From NCBI GenBank assembly GCA_052034235.1, contig JBPOIT010000007.1:22234-86233 (forward strand): DNA of 64,000 bases, given 5' to 3'. The DNA comes from Candidatus Levyibacteriota bacterium. GTDB lineage: Bacteria; Patescibacteriota; Microgenomatia; Levybacterales; UBA12049. Shown here piece by piece: positions 37,493 through 60,856 of this stretch. Under the pieces are notes generated by a model that was given only the letters and a program-made list of their open reading frames with translations, ran no database searches and was not told where the DNA came from. Positions within the stretch are counted from its first letter, which is position 1, and each line of letters starts with the position of its first letter. A program made the position numbers and the translations under genes.

Positions 37493-38662
37493 ATGAACTT
37501 TATTGGATTTGGTAACGGAAAAGATGGGGACTTAGTAGTTTCCTCTGCAAATACCATTATAAACAGCTACACAAGCCTTTCTGCCTCATATAGCGCAGGC
37601 GATAAGGTTTTTAATGTTGCAGATGCCACAAATTTTGCAGTTGGTGACGCAATTATTATTCATCAGTCGAGAGGTACGGGATTTGGTAATACTCAGAAAA
37701 ATAGAATTGAAGGGAAATCCGGAAATCAGCTTACTGTTAGCATTCCTTTTGATTATGGCTATGGAGATGACGGAGGAAACAGGCAGGCTCAAATTATTCG
37801 CTGCCCGGAATATAGTTCTGTAAAGATTAATAATACTGCTTCTATAGCGCCAACTGCTTGGAATGGGGATATTGGTGGAATTATTGCTTATTCATGTAAT
37901 GGGAAAACGACTGTTGATGGTTTCTTCAATTTGAAAGGAAAGGGTTATCGAGGTGGTCTTGGTGCAAATGATGATGCCGGAAGAATTCCTGCTTACTATG
38001 GCGAATCTGGTACTGGTCCCTCTGCGCAAGGACCAGGTGGAATTGATGGAACAGGTGCAGCAAATGGAGCCGGTGGAGGTGCAGGTGGCTCACGATCTGA
38101 TAACGGAGCAGGAGGAGGCGGTGGAGGTCATGCAAACGCAGGATCTAATGGCTTTACTGCTGGCTCAAATCCAAATCCTGGACAAGGTGGATCTTCTGTG
38201 GGTGATGCTGCATTTTCTAGTGCTCACATGGGAGCTGGTGGCGGTGGCGGTGGAATTGATGATTCTACTTATGGTGGACAGGGAGGAGATGGGGCAGGTC
38301 TTTTGTTTGCGGATTCTTATGAGTTTGTAATCAATAACAGCACTGGATATATCGATATGGATGGTACGAATGGTACTGGTCATGGAGATTCAGGAGGCGG
38401 TGGTGGTGGCGCTTCTGCAGGTGGAGCGTTTATCAGAGCTGTAAAAGGTGATATTGGCACTGATCGTATTTATGCAAGGGGAGGAACGGGTGGTCCGGCC
38501 GGTCATGCCTTTGCAGACGGAGGAGATGGTGGTCCTGGAAGTAAAGGAAGAGCAAGAGTTGAAGCCTGTACTCTTTCTGGATCACTCGGCTCATCATTTG
38601 CAGACTATTCATCAGTAGTAGGTGGGAAGGAATGGTGCGGAACCGGCACTGTAATGATGTAA
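37493..38662 (+). CDS. glycine-rich tail fibre-like protein
   Basis: 389 aa with long GGxGG tracts (GAGGGAGGSRSDNGAGGGGGGHANAG; GAGGGGGGIDDSTYGGQGGDGAG). Confidence 0.4.
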   Translation: MNFIGFGNGKDGDLVVSSANTIINSYTSLSASYSAGDKVFNVADATNFAVGDAIIIHQSRGTGFGNTQKNRIEGKSGNQLTVSIPFDYGYGDDGGNRQAQIIRCPEYSSVKINNTASIAPTAWNGDIGGIIAYSCNGKTTVDGFFNLKGKGYRGGLGANDDAGRIPAYYGESGTGPSAQGPGGIDGTGAANGAGGGAGGSRSDNGAGGGGGGHANAGSNGFTAGSNPNPGQGGSSVGDAAFSSAHMGAGGGGGGIDDSTYGGQGGDGAGLLFADSYEFVINNSTGYIDMDGTNGTGHGDSGGGGGGASAGGAFIRAVKGDIGTDRIYARGGTGGPAGHAFADGGDGGPGSKGRARVEACTLSGSLGSSFADYSSVVGGKEWCGTGTVMM

Positions 38663-38666
38663 AACT

Positions 38667-39023
38667 ATGCCAACTCAAGACTTAACAGATCATGACATAT
38701 TAATTACGCTTGTCGAATCGACAAAGAATAACCATACGACTGTTATGGATAAGATTTCTGATGTTAAATCGGATGTTATGGACTTAAAAAGTACGGTTAA
38801 TCTAAAAATTGCAGACCATGAAATCCGTATTAAAGAATTAGAAAAATTGCGAGATGAACTTCAACCGCATACATTAGTTGAAACTCTCAAGAAGAATGAT
38901 AAATGGATTAATGATTTTAAACTTACTTGGAAAGTAACACTTGGTATTGCCTCTGGAATTGCTACAGTCATTGGATTTATTTTGGCAACAGTCGCACAAG
39001 TCTTCAAACTCTTCGGACACTAA
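38667..39023 (+). CDS. coiled-coil protein with C-terminal TM helix (holin-like or tail-associated)
   Basis: 118 aa; C-terminal VTLGIASGIATVIGFILATVAQVF transmembrane segment. Confidence 0.3.
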   Translation: MPTQDLTDHDILITLVESTKNNHTTVMDKISDVKSDVMDLKSTVNLKIADHEIRIKELEKLRDELQPHTLVETLKKNDKWINDFKLTWKVTLGIASGIATVIGFILATVAQVFKLFGH

Positions 39024-39025
39024 AA

Positions 39026-39060
39026 ATGTATAAGGATTAGACCTCATCTCAATATCATTG
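39026..39060 (+). promoter_or_regulatory. conserved late intergenic motif (copy 7, before lysin)
   Basis: ATGTATAAG-N14-TCAATATCATTG, followed by GGTAGG and the ATG. Confidence 0.5.
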
Positions 39061-39066
39061 GGTAGG

Positions 39067-40098
39067 ATGAGAAACTACCCAAAAATCTATTCACAGCGCG
39101 ATCCTAAATGGGCTTCTCAAAGACTAGGAACAGTCAATGGGTCAACCATTGGCCAATATGGTTGTTATTTGACTTGTGATGCCATGACTGCAGGTTATTT
39201 TCATCAAGAAATAACCCCAAATGCTCTAGATGACATCTTCACCAATAAAAAGTACTACGTAAGCGGAAATTTACTCACTGATGACGCATTAACAAAGGTA
39301 TTTCCTGAAATTGTCTACCAAAGGACGTATTCCTATAAGGACGTCCCAGCTGATTTAAATTTACTCAGACAGCTTGCTCAAGACGACACACTAGCAATCA
39401 TTCTATGTATAGACTTCGATCACGATCCAAATGATGGAATTCAGACTCATTTTGTATGTGTTCAATCATATGAAGGAAATACTCTCAAAATTTATGATCC
39501 TTGGTATGGAACTGAAGATGACTTTGCACTCCACTATGGTAATAACCCAGGACTCACGATTCAAAAAGTTGTGGTTTATAAAGGTAATCCGGTTAATGGA
39601 ACCGTTGCTGTAGATGCAGCCGTTTTTCCCCAACTTGTCGATAAAGCCACAAAATATGATGCCTTTCATGCTGCAGGTTATACGACTGTAGATGATGTCA
39701 TAAAGAAAGTAGGTGACCTAACCAATGCCAATACTCAGTTTCAGCAAGATATTCAAAAGCTTCAAGGTCAAATTTCTGATATGGCGACTGCGATTCAAAA
39801 AGTTAAGGATGAAGATTTACAGGCAGTGGACGACTCCTTAAAAGCGCAGCATGAACGAGATAGTGCAGTTTCAGACTTAAATTTTGCAAAGAAACTTCTT
39901 GGTTTAGATCCTCAAGCAACTCCGGATGATATGGATAAAGCAGTTAGTACTTTGAAAGACAAGAATAAGGAGTTAGAGAAAGAAATTAAAGAACAAACTA
40001 AGCCTCAAGCAGAAATTACAGATCCAGATGTTAAAGCTGCATTTAGTTTAATAACTTTCTTGAAAAAGATATTCGGAAAAGGAGGTGATACTCAGTGA
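39067..40098 (+). CDS. putative endolysin: peptidase C39-like/CHAP-like cysteine peptidase with C-terminal coiled-coil domain
   Basis: YSQRDPKWASQRLG...TIGQYGCYLTCDAMTAGYF matches the Peptidase_C39_2-type Cys active-site region. Followed by a holin-like gene. Confidence 0.5.
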   Translation: MRNYPKIYSQRDPKWASQRLGTVNGSTIGQYGCYLTCDAMTAGYFHQEITPNALDDIFTNKKYYVSGNLLTDDALTKVFPEIVYQRTYSYKDVPADLNLLRQLAQDDTLAIILCIDFDHDPNDGIQTHFVCVQSYEGNTLKIYDPWYGTEDDFALHYGNNPGLTIQKVVVYKGNPVNGTVAVDAAVFPQLVDKATKYDAFHAAGYTTVDDVIKKVGDLTNANTQFQQDIQKLQGQISDMATAIQKVKDEDLQAVDDSLKAQHERDSAVSDLNFAKKLLGLDPQATPDDMDKAVSTLKDKNKELEKEIKEQTKPQAEITDPDVKAAFSLITFLKKIFGKGGDTQ

Positions 40099-40373
40099 AT
40101 GACTTAATTGGATTGGTTTTACCACCGGTTATTGATCTTATAAATCATAAAGTATCAAATTCAGCAGCAAAAGTTCTCCTCTCTTTAGCAATTTCACTTA
40201 TTGTTGGTGCATTATTGAATCTTGATAAGCTTAATGTCAAAGACGCAGGAGATGTTTTACAGGCTGGACTAGTGGTTTTCGGATCAGCTCAGGTAACTTA
40301 TCAGCTTTATTGGAAAAAGTCTTTAGATAGGCAACAGATGGTCTCAAAATTGCAAGGAAAAATTTCTAGTTGA
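40095..40373 (+). CDS. putative holin
   Basis: 92 aa with two hydrophobic segments; overlaps the lysin stop by 4 nt. Confidence 0.4.
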   Translation: MNDLIGLVLPPVIDLINHKVSNSAAKVLLSLAISLIVGALLNLDKLNVKDAGDVLQAGLVVFGSAQVTYQLYWKKSLDRQQMVSKLQGKISS

Positions 40374-40632
40374 AGAGTATAATTGCTAGAAGAAGAACTA
40401 TAAATAAAATTGTTCCTACTACCCATATTGTACTCTTTTTGGAGCCTTTTCTTACATCGACAATTATTGGATAATTGAATGGTTGTTTATCTTCTTTTGT
40501 AGTAAATCTCATCATAATTAATTCTATATCATTTTAGGATTGTTTTCTTTTGTGTATTCGTCTGTAATTTGATCCTATATGCGCTATAATAATAGTGTTA
40601 ATAACCTTATGGGCGAAGTAGGTGATAATTCT

Positions 40633-42837
40633 ATGACTGTAAGAGTTGAAGGAGCTGGTATCAGTGATCATCCTGGGGTAGAGCATTCCGCCCCTGTTTT
40701 TCGTGCTCTTAGAAGAGACCAAGATAGACAAGCTGAAATACTTGGTGGTTTTTCTCCGGACCAACAACGAGATATAAGATATAAACAAAAAATACTCACT
40801 TCACTCGCTTCTTTTATAGGAAAGGATTTTAGCATCCCCGTTAAACTGAATGAGCCAGGACAAGGCTGGCATTGGAACTTCCAAGACAACGAAATCAAAG
40901 TAGACCCACAAGATTTAGTAGAAAAGCCACTGGATTATTTAAGATTTGTTACTTCTCATGAAGGTACTCATAGAAGAATATCCAGAGCAGGCGATATTCC
41001 TCAGGAGGTTTGGAGACAACCTGGATTTTCTTTTATGGCAAATGCTATTGAAGATCCAAGAGTAAATAACTTTCTAGCTGATGCATATCCTAAGTCCAGG
41101 GAACAAATGAAGCTTGCCTATGAAATGGATGCTCAATTTGAAGCTCAAGCTAAGAAAGATGCAAAAGATCAGTTAGGATTTCAGCCAAGATTTGTAACAG
41201 CTGGCTTTGAATATATAAAGCAGTGGTTTAGAAGCACACAAGGTCAACCTGTAGAGCTAACTGACGACTTAGCTCCTGAAGTAAGAGAAGTTGTAAAGAA
41301 AACCTTGGAGTCTGCAAGAGATGCATGGCTCAGATACCCGTCAAAGCAAGAAGCAGATCAAGGCGAGGGAATAATAAAAAGATACTCACAGGTGTCTTAC
41401 GAAATTCAAAGAGATGAAGTATGGCCAGAATTTAAGAAGTTGGTAGATCAAGACATGCAAGACCAAGAAACGCAAGAGTTAATCCAACAAATGATGCAAG
41501 GGCAATCCGGTGAGGGTGAAGGCGAAGGACAAAGTGGTCAAGGTATGCCGCAAGACCTAAAAGATAAATTGACACCAGAGCAACAGGGAGAATTAGAGCA
41601 AGCAATGCAACAGGCAGCACAAAAAGGGCAACCTCAGCCTGGCGAGGGACAACCTCAAGCTGGAGATGGTCAGCCAGGGCAAGGAAAAAGAACCGCTGTT
41701 GACTTAGATTCTTTATCACCTGAATTAAGACAAAAATTAAAAGAGCATATTGATAGCAAACCCCAACCCACGCAACAGCAGTTAGAAGAAATGGCTAGGC
41801 AAGCACTTAAAGAATTAGAGGATATGATAAATGAACAATTGCAAGGTAAGTTATCGGATAATCCGGATAAAAAAGCGGAGAGAGAAGCAGCACAAGCTCA
41901 AGCAAAACCTGCAGGAGAAGCTGCTCAGGGTGATAAAAAACCAACTGAAGAAGGAGAGCCTAGCGATAAGCCCGCCACTCCATCTGACTATGAAGGATCA
42001 GATGATTTCAGAAAATTTAAAGACCAATTAGAGCAGGTCATGCAAAAAGACGAAAGCGTATATGAGCAAAACAGAAGAGAAGTTTTACCTGTTATCGATG
42101 CTCTGGAGGGTGATTTAAGAGAGTTGTTCGTGGCACGAAGAGCCAATAAGTGGCACAGTGGTTTCAGAACGGGTAAAAGGATAGATATTAAGAAAAGAAT
42201 GCAGGAGAAAGCCTTGGGTGTCTCTCCTATTGAAAGTAAAGCTTGGCAAAAAAGAGAGGTTCCTCAGGAAAAAGATTATGCAATTACTCTTTTAGTTGAT
42301 CTTTCTGGTTCAATGAGAGGACAAAAGATTTCTGAAACCTTTAAAGGTGCGGTTGCTCTAGCCGAAGTATTAAATAGATTATCGATAAACACGGAAATAT
42401 TAGGATTTAATGACCGACTTTATGAATATCAGGCATATGGACAAGACATGTCGCAAGAAATTAGAGATCGAATGGGAACAATGCCACGGGAGGTTAACAC
42501 CGAAAGAGCTTCATATAATGACGATGGGTGGGCTTTAGAAGAAGCCTCTGAAAGATTAGCCAGACAAAAAGCAACCGAAAAATTCTTATTTGTGTTATCT
42601 GATGGTGTACCAGAGCCATCATCTGCGCACTCTGGTCCCAGGTATGAGTTAGGAGCTGCAGTTAGAAGGATTATGGAAGGATCAGATCAAAAATTAATTG
42701 GTTTAGGAATTGGTCAAGGAACTGAGCATGTCAGTAGATTTTACCCCAATAGTATTGCTAATATAAATGTAGGAGAAATGCCAGAAAAGCTGGCAGATGT
42801 AATTCGAGAAGCAATTGCTAATTACGATACCTTTTAG
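40633..42837 (+). CDS. DUF2201-like protein: N-terminal HExxH metallopeptidase-like domain + Q/G/E-rich linker + C-terminal von Willebrand A (VWA) domain; partner of MoxR-type ATPase
   Basis: HEGTHRR (HExxH) near the N-terminus; VWA MIDAS DxSxS (LLVDLSGSMRGQK) and VLSDG near the C-terminus. AGGTGA RBS before ATG 40633; the track start 40579 is further upstream. Confidence 0.6.
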   Translation: MTVRVEGAGISDHPGVEHSAPVFRALRRDQDRQAEILGGFSPDQQRDIRYKQKILTSLASFIGKDFSIPVKLNEPGQGWHWNFQDNEIKVDPQDLVEKPLDYLRFVTSHEGTHRRISRAGDIPQEVWRQPGFSFMANAIEDPRVNNFLADAYPKSREQMKLAYEMDAQFEAQAKKDAKDQLGFQPRFVTAGFEYIKQWFRSTQGQPVELTDDLAPEVREVVKKTLESARDAWLRYPSKQEADQGEGIIKRYSQVSYEIQRDEVWPEFKKLVDQDMQDQETQELIQQMMQGQSGEGEGEGQSGQGMPQDLKDKLTPEQQGELEQAMQQAAQKGQPQPGEGQPQAGDGQPGQGKRTAVDLDSLSPELRQKLKEHIDSKPQPTQQQLEEMARQALKELEDMINEQLQGKLSDNPDKKAEREAAQAQAKPAGEAAQGDKKPTEEGEPSDKPATPSDYEGSDDFRKFKDQLEQVMQKDESVYEQNRREVLPVIDALEGDLRELFVARRANKWHSGFRTGKRIDIKKRMQEKALGVSPIESKAWQKREVPQEKDYAITLLVDLSGSMRGQKISETFKGAVALAEVLNRLSINTEILGFNDRLYEYQAYGQDMSQEIRDRMGTMPREVNTERASYNDDGWALEEASERLARQKATEKFLFVLSDGVPEPSSAHSGPRYELGAAVRRIMEGSDQKLIGLGIGQGTEHVSRFYPNSIANINVGEMPEKLADVIREAIANYDTF

Positions 42838-42848
42838 TAAGATAAAAA

Positions 42849-43265
42849 TTGATGATTATGAATAGCAAATTTACAGACTTTCTAAAACACTCACTCTCTC
42901 AAAAAGAAATTTCTCTGGCTATTGCAAAAGACGATCAGGAGCTAAATAGCTTCCAAGAGACTCTTCATCAAGCTGGATTTAAGAAGGCTTATGATATTCC
43001 CGAAATCTTAAATGACATGAAGGAAAACTCAAAGGTCTACTACTTTATTGATGAGAAATTCCCCAAAGCGCTGTATGACTTAATAATTCAATACCCCACT
43101 GGTCAAGTAGAGACTTTTGATGTTCGAACAATGAAATCTACAGTGGTTACGCCGTCTTATAGCAAATCAGCTATAATACTGCTTGTCACAAAGGATACTT
43201 TAGCTTATTTTCAGACTAAAGGCTATTCAATATTAGAAAAAGTTGGAATAGCATATCAAAGTTAA
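42849..43265 (+). CDS. hypothetical protein between VWA and AAA genes
   Basis: 138-aa ORF, tightly spaced with both neighbours. Confidence 0.3.
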   Translation: MMIMNSKFTDFLKHSLSQKEISLAIAKDDQELNSFQETLHQAGFKKAYDIPEILNDMKENSKVYYFIDEKFPKALYDLIIQYPTGQVETFDVRTMKSTVVTPSYSKSAIILLVTKDTLAYFQTKGYSILEKVGIAYQS

Positions 43266-43268
43266 AAT

Positions 43269-45269
43269 ATGGAAGATCCGAATGTAGACTCAGCTATGAT
43301 AGAAAGACAAGGACCGATTGACCGAAAGACTGCTCCTATTGTGGAAACTCCTGATACAGTTTCCTATTTGGGCGTGCGTTTAGAGAAGTCATCGGCTCCT
43401 CCTGGATTGTACGTTCCCAGAAAAGAACAATATGCTGATTATATCAATGATAGATTTTCCCTAGACCTTCAAAAACAACTAGCAGTAAGCTTTCTTCAGG
43501 GTGATCCAATTCTTGTGGAAGGTGGTACTAGTATCGGTAAAACAACTACTGTAAGAAAGATGGCAGCAGATCTTGGGTGGGAAGTTCACTACGCCAACCT
43601 TAATGGAGCAACGGATGTAGAAGATTTAATGGGTAGATACATCCCTAATCCAGATAAACATGCTCCTGAAGATCCTGAATATGTATTTGCTGATGGAAAA
43701 GTCACCAGTGGTCTAAGACAAGAAGATGGGAAAATTAAAGTTATTATTTTGGATGAGTTTAATGCTGCAGCTCCTAATATTTTAATTCGTTTACATGAGG
43801 TATTGGATGCTGTAGGCAGAGGGGAAAATGTTGTTTTATCAGAGGATGCTTCAGAAGTTGTTCCTGTTGATAAAGCTAAGACCAAAGTAGTAGCACTCAT
43901 GAATCCTCCTGGAAAAGGTTATTTTGGAAGAGAGCCGCTAGATCCGGCACAGCTAAGACGTTGGGTATACACAAAAGCCCCTACAGATTTACCAGACGAA
44001 ACGTTCAGCCATGCTACAGACGCTTTATTTACGCTGGCTCCTCAAATGCAGGATGTGCCGGAGGATGCATATTTATTAAATCGAGACTTGGCCTTGCTAC
44101 CAGAGCAATTACAAGAAATACCAGGTATCCACGAAGTACTGGCTAAATATAAGGAATTTCACAAAGGAGCAAAATTGTTGGTCAGAGAAAGAAGAGTTGC
44201 TGCAGATCAACCGCAACCATTTACTTACGATGACAGAATGGAACCTAGAAGAGTGAGAGATTTCGTTTTGTCTTTTTATAATGGAGATGTTAATGACACC
44301 TTCCAAACAGCTCTGCGTTATTACTATGAAAATAAATTAGATTCAGCAGTAGATAAAGCTGCTATGGATGAATTAGTCAGAACAGTCGAATATGTAGAGC
44401 CAATACAAAATGTTTCTTCTCAAAGGCGAGGACTAGAAAGGGACGCTGCTGTCAGACCTGGAGAACCATTAGTAGATATTGTTAGGTCTACCGCTACGGA
44501 GACATCTGAGCTTGGAAGAAGGGAAACTGAAGCATGGCAAAGAGTTTTGGGTACAAGAGTTGAAGTAAAGCCATTGCCTGAATCTGTTACACCAGAAGTA
44601 AGAAGAAATCTTGAACGACTTGGGTTTGATTTACGGTATGTTCCCAAAATTGAGCTTGCTGATCGTGATGCTATTAGGCGTAAAGGTGTTGACCAGTACT
44701 TAAAAGATTTACAACGTCAATATCCAAATTGGAAGCCATATGAATCTCTTGGTGATAGAGAGCAATCCGACCATAGAATTCCTCGAAACTTGAGGGAATG
44801 GTATTGGGAGTTAGTAAAAGATGGAAAAGTGGATATGCCTGTGCTTCCTGGACAGTGGTTAGCTGTTGAAACAGTCGATAAGCCATCATATGGGAATAAA
44901 TATGCAAGAACTGCTTTTGCTGAAAAGTTAGGATTTAGAGATGATAGGTTTAATGTCTCTTGGAATGATGCAAATAACGCTATAGAAAGGCAAAAGAGAG
45001 CAGTTTTAGGTGAAGTCGGGCTTACTGGAAGGTCTGCAGATATTCGATTACTAGAGACTCCTGAATGGAATTTATTAGGAAATCGTGAGGGTTGGGGTGC
45101 AACTGATACTTATGAGTGGACAAATACAGAATATCGTGAGTCCGGTGGTCCGCGCCGTCTCGTGGTTGGTGGCTCCGACTACGGTGGTGCGGCGAACGTC
45201 TACTGGGCTCATCCTGACTACTCGTACGACAACGTGGGGTTCCGTGCTGCGGTAGTCGTGGGTTCTTGA
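43269..45269 (+). CDS. DGR target: AAA_5 (MoxR/dynein-related) ATPase with C-terminal FGE-sulfatase/C-type-lectin-fold variable domain
   Basis: Walker A ILVEGGTSIGKTTT, Walker B VIILDEFNAA; no signal peptide. The C-terminal WTNTEYRESGGPRRLVVGGSDYGGAANVYWAHPDYSYDNVGFRAAVV matches the FGE-sulfatase fold signature (RGGSW...GFRcA). The last 122 nt form the VR of the downstream DGR. Confidence 0.75.
   Translation: MEDPNVDSAMIERQGPIDRKTAPIVETPDTVSYLGVRLEKSSAPPGLYVPRKEQYADYINDRFSLDLQKQLAVSFLQGDPILVEGGTSIGKTTTVRKMAADLGWEVHYANLNGATDVEDLMGRYIPNPDKHAPEDPEYVFADGKVTSGLRQEDGKIKVIILDEFNAAAPNILIRLHEVLDAVGRGENVVLSEDASEVVPVDKAKTKVVALMNPPGKGYFGREPLDPAQLRRWVYTKAPTDLPDETFSHATDALFTLAPQMQDVPEDAYLLNRDLALLPEQLQEIPGIHEVLAKYKEFHKGAKLLVRERRVAADQPQPFTYDDRMEPRRVRDFVLSFYNGDVNDTFQTALRYYYENKLDSAVDKAAMDELVRTVEYVEPIQNVSSQRRGLERDAAVRPGEPLVDIVRSTATETSELGRRETEAWQRVLGTRVEVKPLPESVTPEVRRNLERLGFDLRYVPKIELADRDAIRRKGVDQYLKDLQRQYPNWKPYESLGDREQSDHRIPRNLREWYWELVKDGKVDMPVLPGQWLAVETVDKPSYGNKYARTAFAEKLGFRDDRFNVSWNDANNAIERQKRAVLGEVGLTGRSADIRLLETPEWNLLGNREGWGATDTYEWTNTEYRESGGPRRLVVGGSDYGGAANVYWAHPDYSYDNVGFRAAVVVGS
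45135..45256 (+). repeat. DGR variable repeat (VR) at the 3' end of the target gene
   Basis: 122 nt aligning with TR at 45723-45844. The 10 differences (G/A, CG/AA, GG/AA, T/A x4, C/A) all fall on TR adenines. The identical GC-rich 3' end (ggggttccgtgctgcggtagt) is IMH-like. Confidence 0.9.
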
Positions 45270-45284
45270 TAGCTTGATCCTTTG

Positions 45285-45315
45285 GATCTTTTGGTTTTTT
45301 TGGTTTTGATCTCTT
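45285..45315 (+). terminator. rho-independent terminator of DGR target gene
   Basis: GATCC-ttt-GGATC hairpin followed by TTTTGGTTTTTTTGG. Confidence 0.5.
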
Positions 45316-45722
45316 GAATTACCCGCTTGCGGGTCGATTCAAAAAAATAATTTCAGCCTCATAATAATTGCATACGATAGATAGCATTTGACCTTGATTT
45401 TTGTTAGTACCCTCCGATATACTCCTAAATAGATTTTGTTAATGTAAGCGTGGGCATGCCTGCGTTTCACGAAATCTCTCTTTTTATCAATGTGTGAGTT
45501 TTGATGGGTACGCCTATCAGAAGAGAGCAAATAAGAAGATGAAACTACTTGTCCCTTTTTGAAGGTCTCAATAAGTAATTGTTGAGCCAAGTTAAATACA
45601 GGAGACAGTCTTTAGTGTCTAAAGACCATCTCGGTACGAATATAAAGGTAAGGGTTTGTAATTTAACATTCAGTGGCAAGAACTCCGATTCAATCGGAGG
45701 GAAAGAAAAGGGGCAATGCACA

Positions 45723-45844
45723 CGTGAGTCCGGTGATCCGAACCGTCTCGTGGTTGGTAACTCCGACAACGGTGGTGCGGCGAACGTCAACTGGGATCAT
45801 CCTGACAACTCGAACGACAACGTGGGGTTCCGTGCTGCGGTAGT
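45723..45844 (+). repeat. DGR template repeat (TR)
   Basis: Adenine-rich at the variable codons (AAC/AAT). Differs from VR only at adenines. Lies in a 380-nt untranslated spacer upstream of avd/RT. The overlapping 144-aa ORF 45579-46013 is rejected. Confidence 0.9.
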
Positions 45845-45894
45845 ATTATCTTTAAGTGAAATACGGCCTGCTCTATCAAGGGTAGGCCTTATTT

Positions 45895-46272
45895 TTAGGT
45901 GGAAGATGACCTTATCCATCCACCTAACATTTTACCAATTTCTTGAAGGGAGGATTCTAATTCAAGATATTTTTTATTATCAAGTATTTTTAGATCTTTA
46001 CATAACCTTATGAGTACTTTTGTTAAATCGAGCTTTGTACTTGCTCTTTGCAAGACTGGTATTTTTTCTTGTTTAGGTAGGCTCGCAGCGATTGTAACTG
46101 ATTCTAGAAAATCGAGAAGAGCATTTTCGCATCTCTGGCCAAGTGTATATTTATCTTTTTTAGGAAAGTTAACAAGGTAACCATAAAAGGTTTTGTATGT
46201 TTCGTAAGTTTTTTGAAAAATGGGAAAATCTAAAGTTTTATTAATTGATTGAAAATCATGAGAGTCTGGCAT
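45895..46272 (-). CDS. avd: accessory variability determinant (Avd; four-helix-bundle / 23S rRNA-IVS family)
   Basis: 125 aa. FPKKDKYTLGQRCENALLDF... and C-terminal EIGKMLGGWIRSS match the four-helix-bundle family signature (FPKxEKYxLxsQlrRA...EIGKMLNGLIKSL). Head-to-head with the RT gene, overlapping it by 24 nt. Confidence 0.55.
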   Translation of the reverse strand: MPDSHDFQSINKTLDFPIFQKTYETYKTFYGYLVNFPKKDKYTLGQRCENALLDFLESVTIAASLPKQEKIPVLQRASTKLDLTKVLIRLCKDLKILDNKKYLELESSLQEIGKMLGGWIRSSST

Positions 46273-47295
46273 AACATTTACTCAAATCTTATCACATTGG
46301 AGAGCGTTTTTACAGCGTGGGATGAGTTTATTCAAGGCAAAAAGAAAAAAGATGACGTAATGGCTTTTAGAAGGTTTCTCGAGGATAATTTATTCGAACT
46401 TCATCAAAGCTTAAAAGCTAAGACATACCAACATGGTGGGTACAAATCTTTTTATATTAGAGATCCAAAAGTGCGCCATATTTCAAAAGCTTGTGTCAGA
46501 GATAGAGTCGTCCATCATCTCGTCAGTAATGTCTTAGAAAGAATTTTTGACCCTACATTTTATGTGCATTCCTATTCCTGCCGTAAAAACAAAGGAACTC
46601 ATAAAGCAATCGAATCATTTGTTAAGCTTGCCAGAAAAGCTAGCAAAAATAATACGTCACCTCTTTTTGTTCTTAAATGTGACGTAAAGAAGTTTTTTGC
46701 CAGCGTCGATCATGAAATATTATATAGACTACTGGATAGGAGAATTTTTGATGAAGATTTTTTGTGGTTATTGAGAGAAATAATTAATAGCTTTAGTATA
46801 GATGCTCAGGAAAGGGGTATGCCTATAGGGAATCTCACTTCTCAATTTTTCGCTAATATTTACCTGGATCCTTTTGACCGTTTCATTAAGCATGATCTTA
46901 AAATTGAATATTATATTCGCTATGCTGATGACTTCATAATCTTGTCAGACAATAAGGAATATTTAGAGAAGTTAATTGTCAATCTTGAACACTTTTTGGA
47001 ATTTGAGCTAAAGCTATTCCTTCACCCTCACAAAATATCAATTCGAGATTATTATTTAGGAATAGATTTTTTAGGCTATATCGTTTTTCCTAATTTTGTC
47101 TTACCCAGAACCAAAACGAAGAAGCGGCTTTTTAGGAAGATTCATAAAAAGGTGGAACTTTATAAGATGAGTAAAATTACAGCAGAATCCCTTAGCCAGT
47201 CAATTCAATCCTACCTTGGTTATCTTACTCATGCCAATGCGTACAAACTCTCTCAACAGCTGAAGAATCAAATTATATTTTGGCTAAACGACTAA
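46249..47295 (+). CDS. DGR-type reverse transcriptase
   Basis: RT motifs including YADDFII (motif 5) and the DGR-specific MPIGNLTSQFFANIYL (I/LGxxxSQ in place of QGxxxSP). 348 aa with no maturase or endonuclease domains. Confidence 0.9.
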   Translation: MKIMRVWHNIYSNLITLESVFTAWDEFIQGKKKKDDVMAFRRFLEDNLFELHQSLKAKTYQHGGYKSFYIRDPKVRHISKACVRDRVVHHLVSNVLERIFDPTFYVHSYSCRKNKGTHKAIESFVKLARKASKNNTSPLFVLKCDVKKFFASVDHEILYRLLDRRIFDEDFLWLLREIINSFSIDAQERGMPIGNLTSQFFANIYLDPFDRFIKHDLKIEYYIRYADDFIILSDNKEYLEKLIVNLEHFLEFELKLFLHPHKISIRDYYLGIDFLGYIVFPNFVLPRTKTKKRLFRKIHKKVELYKMSKITAESLSQSIQSYLGYLTHANAYKLSQQLKNQIIFWLND

Positions 47296-47507
47296 AACAT
47301 AAATAACTCTTTTGGCTCTACCTTCAGAGCCTTGGAGAGCTTATATATGTTGTCCAGGGAGACATTTTGCTCTCCTCTCTCCACCGCTCCAATATAGGTG
47401 CGGTGAATACTGGCCTTAAACCCCAATGCTTCCTGAGAAAGCTTTGCGGCTTTTCTAACCTCCCTTAGTCTGTTTCCGAATTTTTTTCGGATATTAGTTT
47501 GTCCCAT
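47292..47507 (-). CDS. XRE-family HTH transcriptional regulator
   Basis: 71 aa; LSQEALGFKASIHRTYIGAVERGEQNVSLDNIYKLSKAL is a classic Cro/C1-type HTH. Confidence 0.6.
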   Translation of the reverse strand: MGQTNIRKKFGNRLREVRKAAKLSQEALGFKASIHRTYIGAVERGEQNVSLDNIYKLSKALKVEPKELFMF

Positions 47508-48114: not shown

Positions 48115-50388
48115 ATGAAATTATCAGACAATGAAAAACGAGACATTATTAAGTATCTTGAATCTGGGAAACCCCTTCCAGATAAATACAGATTCCTCCT
48201 CTTCGATGATGACCATGAAGTAGAACTGGTTTGGAATGGTAAAACAAACGAAATCTCCAATATTGTACTACCTTTTCAGACGATAGAACATATTGATGAA
48301 CCAAGAAGCGATGAATCAATCCGGATGCAGAAATCCCTTTTTGATATGTCTGGCCGTCAGATTGAAGGTTGGACAAATAAGCTCATTTGGGGCGATAACA
48401 AACTAATTCTGTCCTCACTCAAAAATGGCCCTCTTAGAAAAGAAATAGAAGCTCAAGGCGGTATAAAACTTATTTATATTGATCCTCCTTTTGATGTAGG
48501 CGCAGACTTTTCTATTGATGTTCAAATTGGTGAGGAAGAATTTATAAAGAAACCATCAGTAATTGAAGAAGTTGCATTTAGAGATACATGGGGTAAAGGT
48601 GTAGATAGTTTTATTGCAATGATTTATGAACGATTGCAATTAATGCACGATCTTTTAGCTGAAGATGGAAGTATTTATATTCACTGCGATGGTCGCGTGA
48701 GCGCATATCTTAAGCTTTGTCTTGATGAAATATTTGGAGCAGACAATAAAATGGCAGAGATAATTTGGAAAAGAAGTTCTGCTCATAATGATAGTAATTC
48801 TTATGGCACGATACATGACACAATTCATTTTTATACTAAAACAGATTTGAATATTTGGAATCCCACCTACGTTGAATACGACCAAGATTATATTGACCAA
48901 TATTATAGATATAAAGATCCTGATGGAAGAAAATGGTTGTCTCGCGACTGTAGTGCTCCTGGAGGGCGAGGGCCGAGATATGAATGGAATGGACATATTC
49001 GAAACTGGCGATACACCAAAGTTAAGATGCAAGAGCTTCATGATGCTGGGAAATTATTTTATACATCAAATGGTATACCTCGCTTTAAGCAGTATATGGA
49101 TGAGATGCCAGGTGTGCCCTCACAAAGTTTATGGATAGACAAAAGTGTTCAAGCAATTAATTCGTGGCATCAAGAAAATGAAGCTTACCCCACACAAAAA
49201 CCAGAAGGACTTTTAGAGCGAATTATAAAAGCGAGTAGTAATGAAAATGATATTGTGGCTGACTTTTTTGTTGGATCGGGAACAACATTGGCTGTCGCAG
49301 AAAAATTAGGTAGAAAATGGATAGGTTCTGATTTAGGAAGATTTTCAATGCACACTACCCGCAAAAGAATGATTAAAGTTCAAAGAGAGCTTAAGAAAGC
49401 AGGTAAAGATTTCAGAGCTTTTGAGATCCTAAATTTAGGAAAATATGAACGGGAACAGTTTATTGGGAAAAACGACAATCTAAGAGAAGAAGACCGACAA
49501 TTGCAGCAGCAAAAGAAAGAACAAGAATTTATAAAATTGATTCTATCAGCTTACAAAGCAGAGGCTGTTGATTCATTTTTAACTATGGTTGGTAAAAAAA
49601 GAGATCGTCTTGTAGCAATCGGACCAATAAATTTTCCTGTTACTGCAGAATTCTTACATCAAGTCGTTACAGAGTGTATAGAGAAGAATATCACTAAAGT
49701 AGATGTGCTTGGGTTTGATTGGGAAATGGGTCTTGAAGTAGATCAATTTAAGAATCAAGGAGTTGATCTTCAGCTTAGAGTAATTCCAAGAGAAGTATTT
49801 GATAAGCGAGCAGTTGAAAAAGGACAAGTTAAATTTTATGAGGTAGCTTTTATTGAAGTTAAGCCCATTATAAAAAAGAATACTATCGCGGTTCAGTTAA
49901 TGGATTTTAGCGTCTTTTATAACCAAGATGATTCAGGTGAAATCGAAGAAAAATTAAAATCAGGTGGTTCTAAAGTTGTTGTCGAGAACGGTCAAGTGAT
50001 TAAGCTTAGTAAAGATAAAGGATCTGAGATTGTTAATCGAGAAGTATTAACAACTAAATGGACAGATTGGGTTGATTATTGGGCTGTTGATTTTAATTTT
50101 GAAAGTAAGAAAGAGTTCATTAGGAAAGCTAAAGATTTCGATATATCTCAACCAAAACTTGATGGTACCGAAGATCCAACACAAACAAAATTCCCTGAGT
50201 ATGAAGAATTATGGACTGGTAGTTATATTTTTGAAAATGAATGGCAATCATTTAGATCTCAAAAAGATAGAAATTTGGAATTAACTACAGTATTTAAAGA
50301 AGTCTCAAGAGGAACTTTAAAGATTGCAGTTAAAGTCGTTGATATTTTTGGTAACGATACAACAAAGGTGATTGAAGTTACAGTTTAA
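48115..50388 (+). CDS. mod: Type III restriction-modification system methyltransferase (Mod; N6-adenine/N4-cytosine, beta class)
   Basis: Motif IV LIYIDPPFD precedes motif I FFVGSGTTLAVAEKLGRKWIGSD (beta-class order). 757 aa, followed directly by a DEAH helicase-nuclease. Confidence 0.75.
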   Translation: MKLSDNEKRDIIKYLESGKPLPDKYRFLLFDDDHEVELVWNGKTNEISNIVLPFQTIEHIDEPRSDESIRMQKSLFDMSGRQIEGWTNKLIWGDNKLILSSLKNGPLRKEIEAQGGIKLIYIDPPFDVGADFSIDVQIGEEEFIKKPSVIEEVAFRDTWGKGVDSFIAMIYERLQLMHDLLAEDGSIYIHCDGRVSAYLKLCLDEIFGADNKMAEIIWKRSSAHNDSNSYGTIHDTIHFYTKTDLNIWNPTYVEYDQDYIDQYYRYKDPDGRKWLSRDCSAPGGRGPRYEWNGHIRNWRYTKVKMQELHDAGKLFYTSNGIPRFKQYMDEMPGVPSQSLWIDKSVQAINSWHQENEAYPTQKPEGLLERIIKASSNENDIVADFFVGSGTTLAVAEKLGRKWIGSDLGRFSMHTTRKRMIKVQRELKKAGKDFRAFEILNLGKYEREQFIGKNDNLREEDRQLQQQKKEQEFIKLILSAYKAEAVDSFLTMVGKKRDRLVAIGPINFPVTAEFLHQVVTECIEKNITKVDVLGFDWEMGLEVDQFKNQGVDLQLRVIPREVFDKRAVEKGQVKFYEVAFIEVKPIIKKNTIAVQLMDFSVFYNQDDSGEIEEKLKSGGSKVVVENGQVIKLSKDKGSEIVNREVLTTKWTDWVDYWAVDFNFESKKEFIRKAKDFDISQPKLDGTEDPTQTKFPEYEELWTGSYIFENEWQSFRSQKDRNLELTTVFKEVSRGTLKIAVKVVDIFGNDTTKVIEVTV

Positions 50389-50393
50389 AAATT

Positions 50394-53078
50394 ATGGCAT
50401 TACATAAAGATTTTCCAATCGATCCATACGCAATTTTAGATCCAAATATAAGATGGTTTCCTGCTGTCGAGGATTTAAGAGAAAAAGGTGGATATGAGCG
50501 GCTTTTGCCTCCATTTATTTCGGAACTTCGAAAAAGAGTAAAAGAATGGAGGGACAACGACTATGCTGAAGCTAGTGAAACTTCAAAAGCGCTTTTAAAT
50601 TGGTGGTTTAAAGAAGAACATACGATTTTTGATAAAAATGGCATGTCCACTCCATTTAAGTATTATTTCTCTCAAAGAGAAGCCGTTGAAACAGTTATCT
50701 GGTTATACGATGTTGCAAAGGTTAAAAGTAAATACGATTTAATTAAATTCGATTCATTGGGAAGAGTCAGTCCTAATATGTTTAATGAGGATTGGTTAAG
50801 ATTCGTTATTAAAATGGCAACAGGAAGCGGGAAAACAAAAGTAATGAGTTTGATTTTGGCATGGGCATACTTCCACAAACTCTATGAGAAGGACTCAAAA
50901 TTAGCTCGTAATTTCTTACTTATAACTCCAAATATTATCGTACTTGAAAGAATAAAAACAGACTTCTTAGGTTTAAAGATATTTCATGAAGATCCAATAC
51001 TACCTGATAATGGATATTCCGGACAGAATTGGCAAGACGATTTTCAATTGACCTTACACTTACAAGATGAGATCGGTTCTATATCTCCTACCGGGAATAT
51101 ATTTTTAACAAATATTCATCGAGTTTTTGAAGGCAATATAGAAGAATCTAGTCCCGATGATGAGGATAGTACAACATATTTTCTTGGTCCAAAACCTGTT
51201 AACAAGACAAATGATTCAAGAGTAGATTTAAGTTCGATTATTCGTGAAATCGATGAATTAATAGTTATTAATGACGAAGCTCACCACATTCATGACGAGA
51301 AGTTAGCTTGGTTTAAATCAATTCAGGACATTCACAATAAACTTAAATTAAAAAATGGAGAACTAGCACTACAGATTGATGTAACTGCCACACCTAAACA
51401 TAACAATGGCGCAATTTTTGTTCAAGTAGTATCTGACTATCCGCTTGTAGAAGCGATTCACCAACGAGTTGTAAAAAATCCCGTATTGCCAGATCAAGCT
51501 AGCAGAGCAAAGCTAAAAGAGAATCAAAGCTCTCTATTTACTGAGAAATACGAAGATTACATAAACTTGGGAGTTATCGAGTGGAAAAAGACCTATGAAG
51601 AATTATTAAAAGCTGGTAAAAAGTCGATTTTATTTATAATGACAGATGACACAAAAAACTGTGATGAGGTGGCTGAATATTTGGAGAGAACATATGCTGA
51701 ATTTAAGGGTGCGGTTTTGACAATTCACACAAATAAAAGCGGTGAAATATCAGAGACTATTCAAGGAAAAGATGAAAAAGAATTGGTAAAGCTTAGGGAA
51801 CAAGCAAATGCAATAGATAGTAACGAAAGTCCTTTTAAAGCGATTATTTCTGTATTGATGCTTAAAGAGGGTTGGGATGTAAAAAACGTTACAACAATTG
51901 TTGGGTTGAGAGCATATTCCTCTACTGCAAATATATTGCCGGAGCAAACATTAGGTCGAGGTTTAAGAAGGATGTTTTTTGGAAGAGATGATCTGGCAGA
52001 GTACGTAAGCATTATTGGTACGCCTGCATTTATGGATTTCGTTGAGTCCATTAAAGGAGAAGGTGTTATTTTGGAAAAGCGCGCAATGGATATAGGAGCA
52101 AAGCCTATTACTCCGGTTGTTATTGAAGTTGATAAAGAAAATGTTAAGAAAGATATTGAAAAACTCGATATTGAACTGCCTATTCTTACTCCAAGAATTC
52201 AGAGAGAGTACAAAAATCTCTCAAAGCTAGATGTTTCAAGCTTTCCTCATAAAAAAATGCCGGTAAAACAATTTAGTGATAAGGAGAAAAAGGAAATAAT
52301 TTTTAAAGAAGTTATCGCGGACAAGCTTCACCACACAACTGTTTTAGATACAAATATTGAACCTAGTTATCAAAGTGCCGTTGGGTTTTTTGCTCAAACG
52401 ATAATGAGAGAACTGCGGCTATTTGGCTGCTACGATATTTTATTTGGACAGGTAAAAGAGTTTGTGAGTAATTACTTATTCGAGACTGCAGTAAATTTGG
52501 ATGATTTAAATATTCTTCGCAATTTATCTGAGCCTGAAGTAACGAAAACCATAACAGAAGTATTCAAAAAGGAAATTAACGATCTCACAATCGAAGATAA
52601 AGGGGATGCTGAGATAAAAAATTACATAAAAATCAGTAATTGTAGGCCATTTGTTGTTAACGACAACGCTTATCTCTTACCGAAGAAGAGCATTTTTAAT
52701 AAAATTGTTGGCGATAGTCATTTTGAGCTTGAATTTGCTGATTTTCTTGAAAGTTGTGAGGACATATTGTCATTTGCTAAAAACTACTTTGAAATACATT
52801 TCAAAATTGATTATAAAAACTCCGATGGATCAATCTCTTATTACTATCCTGATTTCTTTGTAAAAAAAGATAATAAAACTGTTTATATTATCGAAACAAA
52901 AGGCAGAGAAGATCTTGATGATCCAATTAAGATAGCTCGTTTGGCTCAGTGGTGCAATGATGCAAATGGAAGACAAAGCAAGATACAGTACGAAATGTTA
53001 TATGTTAAGGAAGATGAATGGAATAAATATAAACCGAAAGATTTTACCGAGTTGGTTAAAATTTACAAATCTGAATAA
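50394..53078 (+). CDS. res: Type III restriction enzyme Res subunit (SF2 helicase + nuclease)
   Basis: Walker A MATGSGKTKV, DEAH box VINDEAHHIHD, helicase motif VI-like region; 894 aa. C-terminal IIETKGRED resembles a PD-(D/E)XK motif. Confidence 0.75.
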   Translation: MALHKDFPIDPYAILDPNIRWFPAVEDLREKGGYERLLPPFISELRKRVKEWRDNDYAEASETSKALLNWWFKEEHTIFDKNGMSTPFKYYFSQREAVETVIWLYDVAKVKSKYDLIKFDSLGRVSPNMFNEDWLRFVIKMATGSGKTKVMSLILAWAYFHKLYEKDSKLARNFLLITPNIIVLERIKTDFLGLKIFHEDPILPDNGYSGQNWQDDFQLTLHLQDEIGSISPTGNIFLTNIHRVFEGNIEESSPDDEDSTTYFLGPKPVNKTNDSRVDLSSIIREIDELIVINDEAHHIHDEKLAWFKSIQDIHNKLKLKNGELALQIDVTATPKHNNGAIFVQVVSDYPLVEAIHQRVVKNPVLPDQASRAKLKENQSSLFTEKYEDYINLGVIEWKKTYEELLKAGKKSILFIMTDDTKNCDEVAEYLERTYAEFKGAVLTIHTNKSGEISETIQGKDEKELVKLREQANAIDSNESPFKAIISVLMLKEGWDVKNVTTIVGLRAYSSTANILPEQTLGRGLRRMFFGRDDLAEYVSIIGTPAFMDFVESIKGEGVILEKRAMDIGAKPITPVVIEVDKENVKKDIEKLDIELPILTPRIQREYKNLSKLDVSSFPHKKMPVKQFSDKEKKEIIFKEVIADKLHHTTVLDTNIEPSYQSAVGFFAQTIMRELRLFGCYDILFGQVKEFVSNYLFETAVNLDDLNILRNLSEPEVTKTITEVFKKEINDLTIEDKGDAEIKNYIKISNCRPFVVNDNAYLLPKKSIFNKIVGDSHFELEFADFLESCEDILSFAKNYFEIHFKIDYKNSDGSISYYYPDFFVKKDNKTVYIIETKGREDLDDPIKIARLAQWCNDANGRQSKIQYEMLYVKEDEWNKYKPKDFTELVKIYKSE

Positions 53079-53746
53079 TGATAAAACTATCACGATCAAA
53101 AATTGAGTTACTTTTCGACTGCCCTCGTTGCTTTTGGTTTTATGCCGGAAAAAGCATTGCCCGCCCGTTTGGTGCTCCTTACACAATAAATAATGCGGTA
53201 GATTTTATCCTTAAAAAGGAATTTGATGTCCATAGAGCCAATGGAACTGCTCACTATCTAATTGTAAGGGATGGAATTGATGCAATTCCATATATGCACG
53301 AAGATATTGATAAATGGAGACACAACTTTACAGGTATTCAATTTCACCACCAAGAGACAGATTTCCTTGTTTTTGGAGCAGTTGATGATATATGGGTCGA
53401 TTCCCAGGGAAATCTCATTGTGGTGGATTACAAAGCCTCTGGGGCTAAAGAAGGAGAGCTTTACGATAGTTATAAAAGACAGATGGAAATTTACCAATGG
53501 ATACTAAGACAAAATGGATTTAAGGTGCAAAATCGTGGGTATTTCGTATATTGCCGAGTAAATAAAGAGAATGGGTTTCCAGAGGGTAAACTTAGCTTCG
53601 ATATTAAACTTCAGCCATATGATGGTGATGATAGTTGGGTTACAAATAAGATCTTCGAAGCAAAAAAGATATTGGATGGAAAAATGCCTGATAGCTCCGA
53701 GGCGTGCACATATTGCAAGTATGTTAAATCTCTTCAGATCGATTAA
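53078..53746 (+). CDS. Cas4-like PD-(D/E)XK nuclease with N- and C-terminal Cys pairs
   Basis: CPRCFW near the N-terminus and CTYCKY at the C-terminus flank VDD...VVDYKAS (D...D-x-K). Start overlaps the res stop. Confidence 0.5.
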   Translation: MIKLSRSKIELLFDCPRCFWFYAGKSIARPFGAPYTINNAVDFILKKEFDVHRANGTAHYLIVRDGIDAIPYMHEDIDKWRHNFTGIQFHHQETDFLVFGAVDDIWVDSQGNLIVVDYKASGAKEGELYDSYKRQMEIYQWILRQNGFKVQNRGYFVYCRVNKENGFPEGKLSFDIKLQPYDGDDSWVTNKIFEAKKILDGKMPDSSEACTYCKYVKSLQID

Positions 53747-53772
53747 AGCTATAAAAAGGAAAGGAAACCCTC

Positions 53773-57702: not shown

Positions 57703-57712
57703 AAATTAATTT

Positions 57713-58552: not shown

Positions 58553-58559
58553 TTATAAA

Positions 58560-60125: not shown

Positions 60126-60133
60126 TACGAAGC

Positions 60134-60823: not shown

Positions 60824-60840
60824 TATGTGCCTCTTGAAAA

Positions 60841-60856
60841 GTAAACAAATGTTTAT
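60841..60856. promoter_or_regulatory. palindromic operator GTAAACA-AA-TGTTTAT (putative LexA/repressor box) in SRAP-repressor divergent promoter region
   Basis: One of three copies of GTAAACA-N2-TGTTTAC. It lies 18 nt upstream of the SRAP start and 40 nt upstream of the repressor start. Confidence 0.5.

Follow-up and report, generated by a model that had tools for sequence, protein, structure and literature searches.

The question raised by this locus is whether a retroelement recognised next to a variable gene is a complete and working system, and how the RNA that serves as its template is organised. The window, that is, the whole stretch of 64,000 nucleotides (nt) analysed from contig JBPOIT010000007.1 of a Candidatus Levyibacteriota bacterium, was found to contain a diversity-generating retroelement (DGR), in which a target gene ending in a variable repeat (VR) is followed by a template repeat (TR), an inverted avd gene and a reverse transcriptase (RT) gene. 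The element is very probably an intact and currently active DGR with the B3 layout typical of bacteria in the Candidate Phyla Radiation (CPR), carried as cargo of a prophage of about 52 kb in a Patescibacteria host. Positions given are those of the window, and related loci are given by L numbers.

Adenine-specific divergence and variation between copies

The repeat pair was found to contain the following features.

45135 to 45256, plus strand: variable repeat (VR), codons 623-663 of the target gene
45226 to 45256, plus strand: 3′ segment of the VR resembling an initiation of mutagenic homing (IMH) site, identical to TR 45814-45844, adenines unmutated
45723 to 45844, plus strand: template repeat (TR), with 24 A, 20 of them in 13 variable codons

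In an ungapped comparison at an offset of 588, the VR and the TR were found to be identical at 112 of the 122 positions, and the identity ended abruptly at both limits. The 10 mismatches all contained A in the TR copy, as the preliminary description had claimed, and the corresponding VR bases were G (four), T (four) and C (two). The TR contains 24 A in 122 nt, and the probability that all of the 10 mismatches fall on A by chance is P = 1.4e-8. The substitutions occupied codon positions 1 or 2 only, with eight of them in six AAC codons and two in GAT codons. The mutable adenines, 20 of the 24, were found at codon positions 1-2 of 13 codons, seven of which are AAC and the rest GAT, GAC, CAT or GAG; the variable codons had been described as AAC and AAT, and the AAC part of that description stood whereas no AAT codon was involved. 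The 13 codons give a capacity of about 7e11 protein variants, and a stop codon is unreachable. The last 31 nt of the VR and the TR were identical, with 61% G+C and five unmutated A, in line with the invariant GC-rich 3′ end reported before. This TR 3′ 31-mer occurred twice within the whole window, and therefore a single VR is present. The pattern in which all mismatches fall on adenine was found to recur in more than 15 related loci.

Some of the related Patescibacteria DGRs were found to contain a second VR, or a VR several kb away from the TR, as in L040 (6297-6395 compared with 5879-5977 and 8693-8791), L056 (3364-3489) and L072 (1062-1183), so that the lineage also includes multi-target elements. 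A target homologue in the database (C-terminus ...LIVGNSDNGGAANANWNHPDNSNDNIGFRVAVVL...) was found to contain a VR resembling the unmutated template, with Asn or Asp at all of the variable codons, and it represents either a naive VR just reset from the TR or an assembly chimera of VR and TR.

Heterogeneity of the VR restricted to A-templated sites had been proposed as a check, and it was found between copies of the element. A second assembly of the same prophage (Logan SRR34217540), found through an exact-protein match of the neighbouring 138-aa protein, covers window positions 37967-45255 and contains 4 differences in 7,289 nt. These differences, at 45148, 45153, 45154 and 45172, were all located in the VR and all at TR-adenine sites; the chance that 4 differences in 7,289 nt all fall on the 20 variable sites is about 6e-11. 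Because this copy differs solely at adenine-templated sites of the VR, the element is read as active, and because two VR alleles are present while the other 7,285 compared nt are identical, no other substitution is as recent as the diversification. Over 45815-47009, which is covered by a third contig from another run, there was no difference to the window. Among the relatives, L062 and L067 were found to differ at five VR adenine sites plus one other position in 660 nt, and the sole difference between L059 and L071 in 1,112 nt was one VR adenine site. The loci L001, L002, L059 and L062 contained practically one common TR and very different VRs.

These observations bear on the possibility that the element is a recently inactivated relic, in which the VR/TR differences would record past activity of a machinery that is now dead. 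Such a relic is improbable. Just two VR alleles of this exact element were seen, as a relic might lead one to expect; against it, all open reading frames (ORFs) were found to be intact and of full length with the catalytic motifs present, the RNA helices, the promoter and the terminator were intact, and the two samples contain different VR alleles in an otherwise identical sequence. Exact-pattern scans, with N at every TR adenine, of genome, metagenome and viral contig collections returned no VR/TR variant of this element, and exact-protein look-ups of the target and of the RT returned no match.

The public short-read assemblies were found to break at the 31-nt VR/TR segment, where L076 ends at window position 45255 and L077 starts at 45815. 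The Logan assemblies presumably use a k-mer length of 31, equal to the shared VR/TR segment. Heterogeneity of the VR was considered as the cause of the contig breaks and rejected, since the breaks coincide with the exact 31-nt VR/TR repeat, which equals the k-mer length of the assembler. In k=31 assemblies, DGR loci built in this way will tend to end up on separate contigs and hence to be under-detected.

Reverse transcriptase, Avd and the B3 gene order

The protein-coding part of the retroelement, located downstream of the TR, was found to contain three genes.

45895 to 46272, minus strand: avd, accessory variability determinant, 125 aa, between TR and RT (Pfam bAvd, 9.3e-19)
46258 to 47295, plus strand: DGR reverse transcriptase (RT), 345 aa, with PIGNLTSQ and YADD (Pfam RVT_1, 7e-25)
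47292 to 47507, minus strand: XRE-type helix-turn-helix (HTH) protein, 71 aa (HTH_3, 4e-15), convergent with the RT gene and overlapping its stop codon by 4 nt

Residues 5-333 of the RT were found to align with the RT of the Bordetella phage DGR (PDB 8ub7) with E = 8e-45 and 157 bits, the best match among solved relatives, whereas group II intron RTs reached 75 bits (9e-20) at best and retron RTs 72 bits. The motif PIGNLTSQ, which had been taken as DGR-specific, was aligned opposite PIGSLTSQ of the Bordetella phage RT. The opposite-strand gene, proposed before as Avd-like, matched bAvd (9e-19) and passed the curated NCBIfam equivalog NF033474 with 93.9 bits against a cut-off of 80. Both of the model-based checks that the preliminary description had asked for, on the RT and on Avd, were therefore in agreement with it.

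The same comparisons bear on the reading that the locus is not a DGR at all, the RT being of the group II intron, retron or defence type and the 122-nt repeat an unrelated duplication. In the NCBIfam scan of the RT no DGR RT model was matched, and the best match was a group II intron RT/maturase with 157 bits against a cut-off of 300; the generic RT models of PADLOC also matched. The score of the Bordetella phage RT, however, was double that of any RT from a group II intron or a retron, Avd passed its curated equivalog, the mismatches fell on adenines alone both here and in the related loci, the variation between samples was confined to adenine sites, and Rfam detected no intron RNA domains and no retron msr/msd. 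This reading was refuted by the tests run and is given next to no credence.

The RT start had been placed at TTG 46249. The ATG at 46258 is most likely the start, which gives a head-to-head overlap of 15 nt with avd, and the same 15-nt overlap was seen in the three related loci L001, L002 and L006. The overlap, at 46258-46272, contains ATGAGAGTCTGGCAT, the plus strand of which encodes M-R-V-W-H and the minus strand M-P-D-S-H, with the two start codons at its two ends. Because the two starts overlap by 15 nt, the promoter of each gene must lie within the other gene, and the arrangement suggests mutual transcriptional interference or co-regulation. The HTH protein was 76% identical to its counterpart in L001, compared with 64% for the RT, and was more conserved than the RT or Avd; its gene was found at the same position in L006, and it is probably a regulator that forms a fixed part of the cassette.

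The order TR-(avd)-RT was found in 16 of the 16 checked related loci with an AAA-type target. In the available excerpts of Wu et al. 2018 (PMC5758913), this B3 architecture makes up 90% of that study's CPR set, and some of the targets from CPR have matches to the midasin AAA domain. The available excerpts of Dore et al. 2024 (PMC10907252) describe the CPR RTs as a separate clade and, citing Paul et al. 2017, give the AAA-ATPase/lectin target as published for CPR DGRs. In those of Roux et al. 2021 (PMC8144416), the DGR clade of the Patescibacteria (RT clade 2) is described as almost entirely cell-encoded. The element shares with the CPR B3 DGRs the same gene order and strands (VR, TR, inverted avd, RT), a target in which a midasin-like AAA domain is fused to a lectin, and a Patescibacteria host, and it is a member of this published class. 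It differs in being located inside a prophage where the clade, as far as those excerpts go, is almost entirely cell-encoded. The wording "textbook" used for the element beforehand was accurate, the TR-(avd)-RT order and the AAA-ATPase/lectin target being the published standard for CPR DGRs. The excerpts of the CPR-DGR literature searched, with Paul et al. 2017 outside the scope, contained no mention of the vWA partner, the 138-aa protein, the HTH protein or the structured leader, which are described below.

The template RNA and its leader

The region from the promoter to the start of the avd gene was found to contain the following features.

45394 to 45423, plus strand: promoter-like site TTGATT-N18-TATACT, with a predicted start of the DGR RNA near 45430
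45430 to 45722, plus strand: structured 5′ leader of about 290 nt, with hairpins at 45432-76, 45491-529, 45564-88, 45599-634 and 45683-99
45536 to 45560, plus strand: bridging strand, composed of X (45536-48, AAGAUGAAACUAC) and, directly after X, Y (45549-60, UUGUCCCUUUUU)
45705 to 45716, plus strand: Y′ (GAAAAGGGGCAA), partner of Y, ending 6 nt before the TR 5′ boundary
45840 to 45852, plus strand: X′ (GUAGU/AUUAUCUU), partner of X, straddling the 3′ end of the TR/VR homology (at the stroke)
45865 to 45888, plus strand: 10-bp tetraloop hairpin followed by a T-run, 21 nt after the TR, conserved in L058 and L066

The roughly 450 nt between the VR and the TR were found to be conserved at the nucleotide level in loci whose proteins are just 65-75% identical, and the hexamers of the promoter-like site were conserved or invariant in the family alignment. 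From this site together with the hairpin and T-run after the TR, a stand-alone transcript of about 466 nt is predicted. The hairpin at 45865-45888 may serve to terminate the DGR RNA, to bind Avd as a stem-loop, or for both purposes, and about 50 nt separate the TR from avd on the opposite strand.

The consensus structure of the leader contains 87 pairs, which were scored on 14 sequences against two controls, namely the partners slid by 1-3 columns and 500 column shuffles. Standard pairs were formed in 96.7% of the cells, compared with 42-47% with the partners slid, and 37 of the 87 pairs were changed on both sides, compared with 3-13; the observed values were reached in none of the 500 shuffles. 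The window sequence folded alone (minimum free energy) contained the same leader helices, with z = -5.1. A reading of the leader as coding sequence, with ORFs at 45339-45590 (minus strand), 45545-45790 (minus strand) and 45579-46013 (plus strand), was rejected on the covariation of the paired columns and on loop insertions that are not multiples of three. The helices proposed by RNAalifold inside the TR were discarded, because the TR is under coding-type constraint and cannot show covariation.

No Rfam family was matched in a search of 45000-46400, and the leader sequence was undetectable by nhmmer in more distant Patescibacteria DGRs. A covariance model of the 5′ part of the leader gave significant matches (E < 0.1) that were all on the same strand and downstream of the target gene, and between the target and the TR wherever the TR was mapped, with weak matches in the distant group. 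In L016 an insertion of about 670 nt (6043-6713) was found between the post-VR hairpin region and the leader, and the covariance model still scored 74 bits there.

The bridging strand was found to pair with both flanks of the TR. The helices X:X′ and Y:Y′ (helices 6 and 7) were 97% and 95% paired, respectively, with three and four pairs changed on both sides, as in the compensatory change of CUAC:GUAG to UUAC:GUAA, and they end within 5-8 nt of the limits of the VR/TR homology. In the more distant loci L025, L048, L056, L057, L051 and L019 the same two-part strand was present with different yet complementary sequences, namely a 5-nt segment that pairs with the TR 3′ boundary, followed by GC and a 12-nt segment that pairs just upstream of the TR. 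In these six loci the strand was located 116-129 nt upstream of the TR, and four or five different, fully complementary sequences were found. An automatic energy scan for the bridging strand gave a clear signal in some loci only (z -4 to 0), and the claim for the distant loci rests on the aligned complementary segments.

A mechanism in four steps can be proposed. The non-coding RNA of about 466 nt (about 45430-45895) would be transcribed from its own promoter. One strand of its leader would pair with the TR 3′ boundary and, adjacent to it, with the segment just 5′ of the TR, a pairing evidenced by the covariation. The RT-Avd complex would then copy the TR to cDNA with misincorporation opposite adenines, the adenine-specific outcome of which is seen in the VR; by analogy with Bordetella, X:X′ would position the start of the cDNA (first templated base at about 45839) and Y:Y′ would stop it at the 5′ limit of the TR. 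The cDNA would finally replace the VR through the shared 31-nt 3′ segment, possibly with the help of the GC hairpin downstream. Up to 13 codons would be recoded in this way, all in the C-type-lectin tip of the target, a soluble AAA+ ATPase of the MoxR/midasin type that is encoded with a vWA/MIDAS partner.

The arrangement can be compared with the RNA of phage BPP-1, in which a spacer strand pairs with the TR 3′ end and also with the sequence upstream of the TR, so forming two adjacent duplexes, and supplies the priming adenosine between them (bioRxiv 10.1101/2023.10.23.563531). The element shares with BPP-1 (mtd-avd-TR-brt; PDB 8ub7 series) adenine-specific mutagenesis, an AAC-rich template, the RT motif PIGxLTSQ, Avd and a lectin fold, and one strand forming two adjacent duplexes with the same partners in the same 5′-to-3′ order was found here as well, in helices 6 and 7. 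In BPP-1, however, the strand belongs to a 140-nt spacer downstream of the TR, whereas here it lies about 175 nt upstream of the TR in a 290-nt leader, and no downstream spacer supplying a strand for both TR flanks was found. The two systems differ further in that avd is on the opposite strand and outside the RNA here, that the TR is apparently a transcription unit of its own, that the VR and the TR contain no IMH/IMH* mismatch, that the hairpin is located 65 nt from the VR, and that the target is not a tail fibre.

It is tentatively proposed, at a little short of even chances, that the CPR B3 DGRs use a circularly permuted, stand-alone template RNA, in which an upstream leader (about 120-290 nt, by subgroup) primes, stops and organises reverse transcription. 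If this is true, the RNA rearrangement would have led to the inverted avd and to the 15-nt avd/RT overlap, and many CPR and DPANN DGRs would prime outside the region covered by the RNA surveys, which took in 40 nt upstream and 100 nt downstream of the TR. The alternative is an RNA logic like that of Bordetella, in which the leader is only a 5′ untranslated region (UTR) and priming or Avd binding takes place through the hairpin 45865-45888 or through read-through, antisense to avd, into the RT gene. The 10-bp tetraloop hairpin 21 nt after the TR fits this alternative, and stem-loops of this kind just downstream of the TR were reported in 207 of 278 Avd-type DGRs, a set that includes CPR members (bioRxiv 10.1101/2023.10.23.563531); the RT gene lies downstream on the TR strand, so that read-through is possible, and the predicted priming position is not an adenosine. 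The gap of about 50 nt between the TR and avd, however, is poorly conserved except for the hairpin, and when the 300 nt downstream of the TR were searched for a comparable bridging strand, the duplexes found in the window and in L001 were weaker than those of the upstream search. A plain UTR would not easily account for a leader strand that pairs with the two flanks of the TR and shows compensatory changes in two divergent subgroups, and the Bordetella-like logic is considered unlikely. The upstream bracket RNA supported by covariation is possibly new, as no description of it was found in the literature searched, with Paul et al. 2017 outside the scope.

Between the VR and the promoter-like site two further features were found.

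45259 to 45320, no strand assigned: T-rich stretch in which CTTGA/TTGG motifs recur, situated after the VR and before the GC hairpin and including the target stop codon
45321 to 45334, no strand assigned: GC hairpin ACCCG-CTTG-CGGGT, 65 nt downstream of the VR

Although most of the T-rich stretch is non-coding, its nucleotide sequence was found to be conserved in 12 loci, with a weak 9-nt tandem periodicity (motif period roughly 8-9 nt), and it could be a protein-binding array or a part of target-site recognition. The GC hairpin reported in the preliminary description was present, at 45321-45334 rather than at 45318-45331. It was found in 11 of the 12 relatives, with a different hairpin sequence in L008, and it was absent from L006; in L009 and L010 it was followed by a T-run. 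Its role could be that of a cruciform in target recognition, that of a terminator for the target operon, or both.

The target module and its prophage setting

The genes upstream of the DGR RNA were found to be arranged as follows.

40579 to 42837, plus strand: vWA/MIDAS partner, 752 aa, CobT-like, first gene of the cassette (Pfam CobT_C, 4.8e-16, and VWA)
42849 to 43265, plus strand: conserved protein of 135-138 aa, 138 aa here, between the vWA partner and the target
43269 to 45269, plus strand: DGR target, 666 aa, MoxR/midasin-type AAA+ ATPase followed by a helical region, then a disordered linker, then a C-terminal module with a predicted C-type-lectin/formylglycine-generating enzyme (FGE) fold at its end

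The target was found to contain an AAA_5 domain (Pfam) with invariant Walker A and B motifs, and its closest solved relatives were the midasin AAA modules (3e-33) and CobS by sequence, and NorQ, CbbQ and dynein by fold. The middle region was unmatched by sequence models, and the predicted structure of the C-terminus contained a C-type-lectin/FGE fold on which the variable residues are displayed. The vWA partner, with CobT and the midasin MIDAS domain as its closest solved relatives, contained the MIDAS motif DLSGSM and HEGxH, both invariant in six orthologues, and its gene was found at the same position in L001, L002, L005, L006 and L008. Its N-terminal domain, which was matched by no Pfam model, contained at residues 127-131 the invariant SHEGxHRRISR (HExxH), and this domain may, judging from the motif, be a zincin-like metallopeptidase effector. 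The 138-aa protein was matched in none of Pfam, NCBIfam and PADLOC and was present and alignable in all of the related cassettes. The proteins of the target module were predicted to be soluble and cytoplasmic.

The NCBIfam scores for cobaltochelatase, 21.4 against a cut-off of 558.6 bits for CobS and 41.2 against 759 bits for CobT, were far under the curated cut-offs, and a cobaltochelatase identity was rejected. CobS-CobT, NorQ-NorD, CbbQ-CbbO and midasin share with this pair an AAA_5 ATPase and a vWA partner with a DxSxS MIDAS motif; they differ in that the ATPase here contains a C-terminal module of 250 residues with a hypervariable lectin end, and the vWA protein an HEGxH N-terminal domain. 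The DGR-diversified vWA-MoxR conflict systems of the VMAP ternary type, described from multicellular bacteria (Kaur et al. 2020, PMC7159879; PMC10907252), are similar in that a MoxR-class ATPase, a vWA protein and a DGR-variable lectin are encoded together, with proteins predicted to be soluble and cytoplasmic and a neighbourhood rich in defence-type genes. The lectin here, however, is part of the ATPase and not of the vWA protein, and the host is not a multicellular bacterium; the domain scans of the cassette revealed no VMAP protein and no recognised effector or adaptor domain, and the three-gene VMAP core was not found. The target is probably a hexameric MoxR/midasin-type ATPase with a flexible arm that ends in a hypervariable lectin domain. 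By analogy with NorQ-NorD, CobS-CobT and midasin, the task of the ATPase would be to remodel or pull out something that the complex holds, with the variable tip choosing the ligand.

The prophage was found to span about 11.2-63.6 kb (about 52.4 kb), with terminase, portal, protease, capsid, tape-measure and tail genes at 17.7-36 kb, followed by the presence of endolysin-like and holin-like genes at 39-40.4 kb and the DGR in the cargo region. The right end contained an integrase (62349-63371, minus strand) and a LexA-like repressor, and the att-like imperfect direct repeats GACTTA[A/G]AAATCCCCGCATT were found at 11233-11255 and 63617-63639, with no tRNA gene at the junction. The location in a prophage cargo region that had been suggested from the outset is borne out by these genes and repeats. 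Downstream of the DGR the cargo was found to contain the following genes.

48115 to 50388: type III methylase
50394 to 53078: Res helicase-nuclease, forming a type III restriction-modification pair with the methylase
53078 to 53746: Cas4-like PD-(D/E)XK nuclease
53773 to 57702: TPR protein of 1,309 aa with the PIN domain of the PIN-TPR-GreABC system
within 48115 to 61484: HD-domain protein, trypsin-like peptidase, SRAP peptidase and LexA-like S24 repressor

The left end of the window (150-10156) contained a dcw-like cluster of cell-wall and division genes through ftsA and ftsZ. The FtsZ protein was 76-84% identical to sequences named Patescibacteria, Saccharimonadales and Levyibacteriota, and the host is therefore a member of the Patescibacteria; the homologous target loci are mostly named Patescibacteria as well. 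Several metagenome-assembled genomes with the cassette are labelled Gammaproteobacteria, Pseudomonadales, Anaerolineaceae or Geobacteraceae, probably through mistakes in binning or labelling and not because these are the real hosts.

The cassette contains, in order, the vWA/MIDAS partner, the 135-138-aa protein, the target, the DGR RNA, avd, the RT and the XRE-type HTH gene. It was found on the viral contigs L001 and L002, beside a primase-polymerase and a terminase in L006, beside another type III restriction system in L005, and between housekeeping genes in L008. Since it recurs in such varied contexts, the cassette is mobile and not tied to virion function. This bears on the reading in which the target is a virion receptor-binding protein like Mtd of BPP-1 and the DGR switches the tropism of the prophage. 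The cassette does lie in a prophage, directly after the tail and lysis genes, L001 and L002 are classified as viral, and L006 adjoins a terminase; yet the target, an AAA+ ATPase whose Walker motifs are intact, has a vWA protein as its partner, the cargo position is past the lysis genes and beside restriction-modification and other defence-type genes, and in L008 the cassette has housekeeping genes on both sides. The phage collection searched contained no DNA or protein match, and no record in it encodes a target homologue. A virion receptor-binding role is very unlikely. The target would most likely act as a cytoplasmic ATPase machine with variable ligand specificity in a conflict or host-interaction context. 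The cargo position beside defence genes in two independent contexts, the window and L005, favours a conflict role, such as the recognition of invading elements or host factors.

Several observations weigh against the account given here, in which an active DGR with a leader-organised RNA diversifies the lectin tip of an ATPase in a prophage-borne conflict module. No sequence model, from Pfam or the other model scans, matched the lectin domain, the fold of which rests on the predicted structure, and the VR and the TR contain no IMH/IMH* difference inside the shared 31 nt. The transcript ends, the priming nucleotide and the priming role of the leader are drawn from analogy, and where the Bordetella RNA has its priming adenosine, the equivalent nucleotide here is not A. 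In PADLOC, neither the vWA partner nor the 138-aa protein was assigned to a known defence family, and the target reached no more than a marginal AAA-domain match (mad8, E = 4e-4). The chromosomal copy in L008, between housekeeping genes, means that the prophage context alone is no sign of phage function, and together with the absent PADLOC match it keeps the conflict role speculative.

The reading of the element as an intact and active CPR B3 DGR provides a well-annotated reference locus for an abundant class of CPR DGRs, with activity shown from public data alone. The leader supported by covariation provides a testable model, at the nucleotide level, for the start and stop of the cDNA in B3 DGRs, the majority architecture of the CPR, and the two-duplex bracket around the TR, seen by cryo-electron microscopy in one phage, is conserved even where the RNA is rearranged. 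The prophage-borne copy and its relatives on viral contigs are a modest addition to the cell-encoded picture of the Patescibacteria clade. The presence of the module on prophages beside restriction and defence genes supports the unproven view that these DGRs diversify intracellular recognition machines and not surface adhesins.

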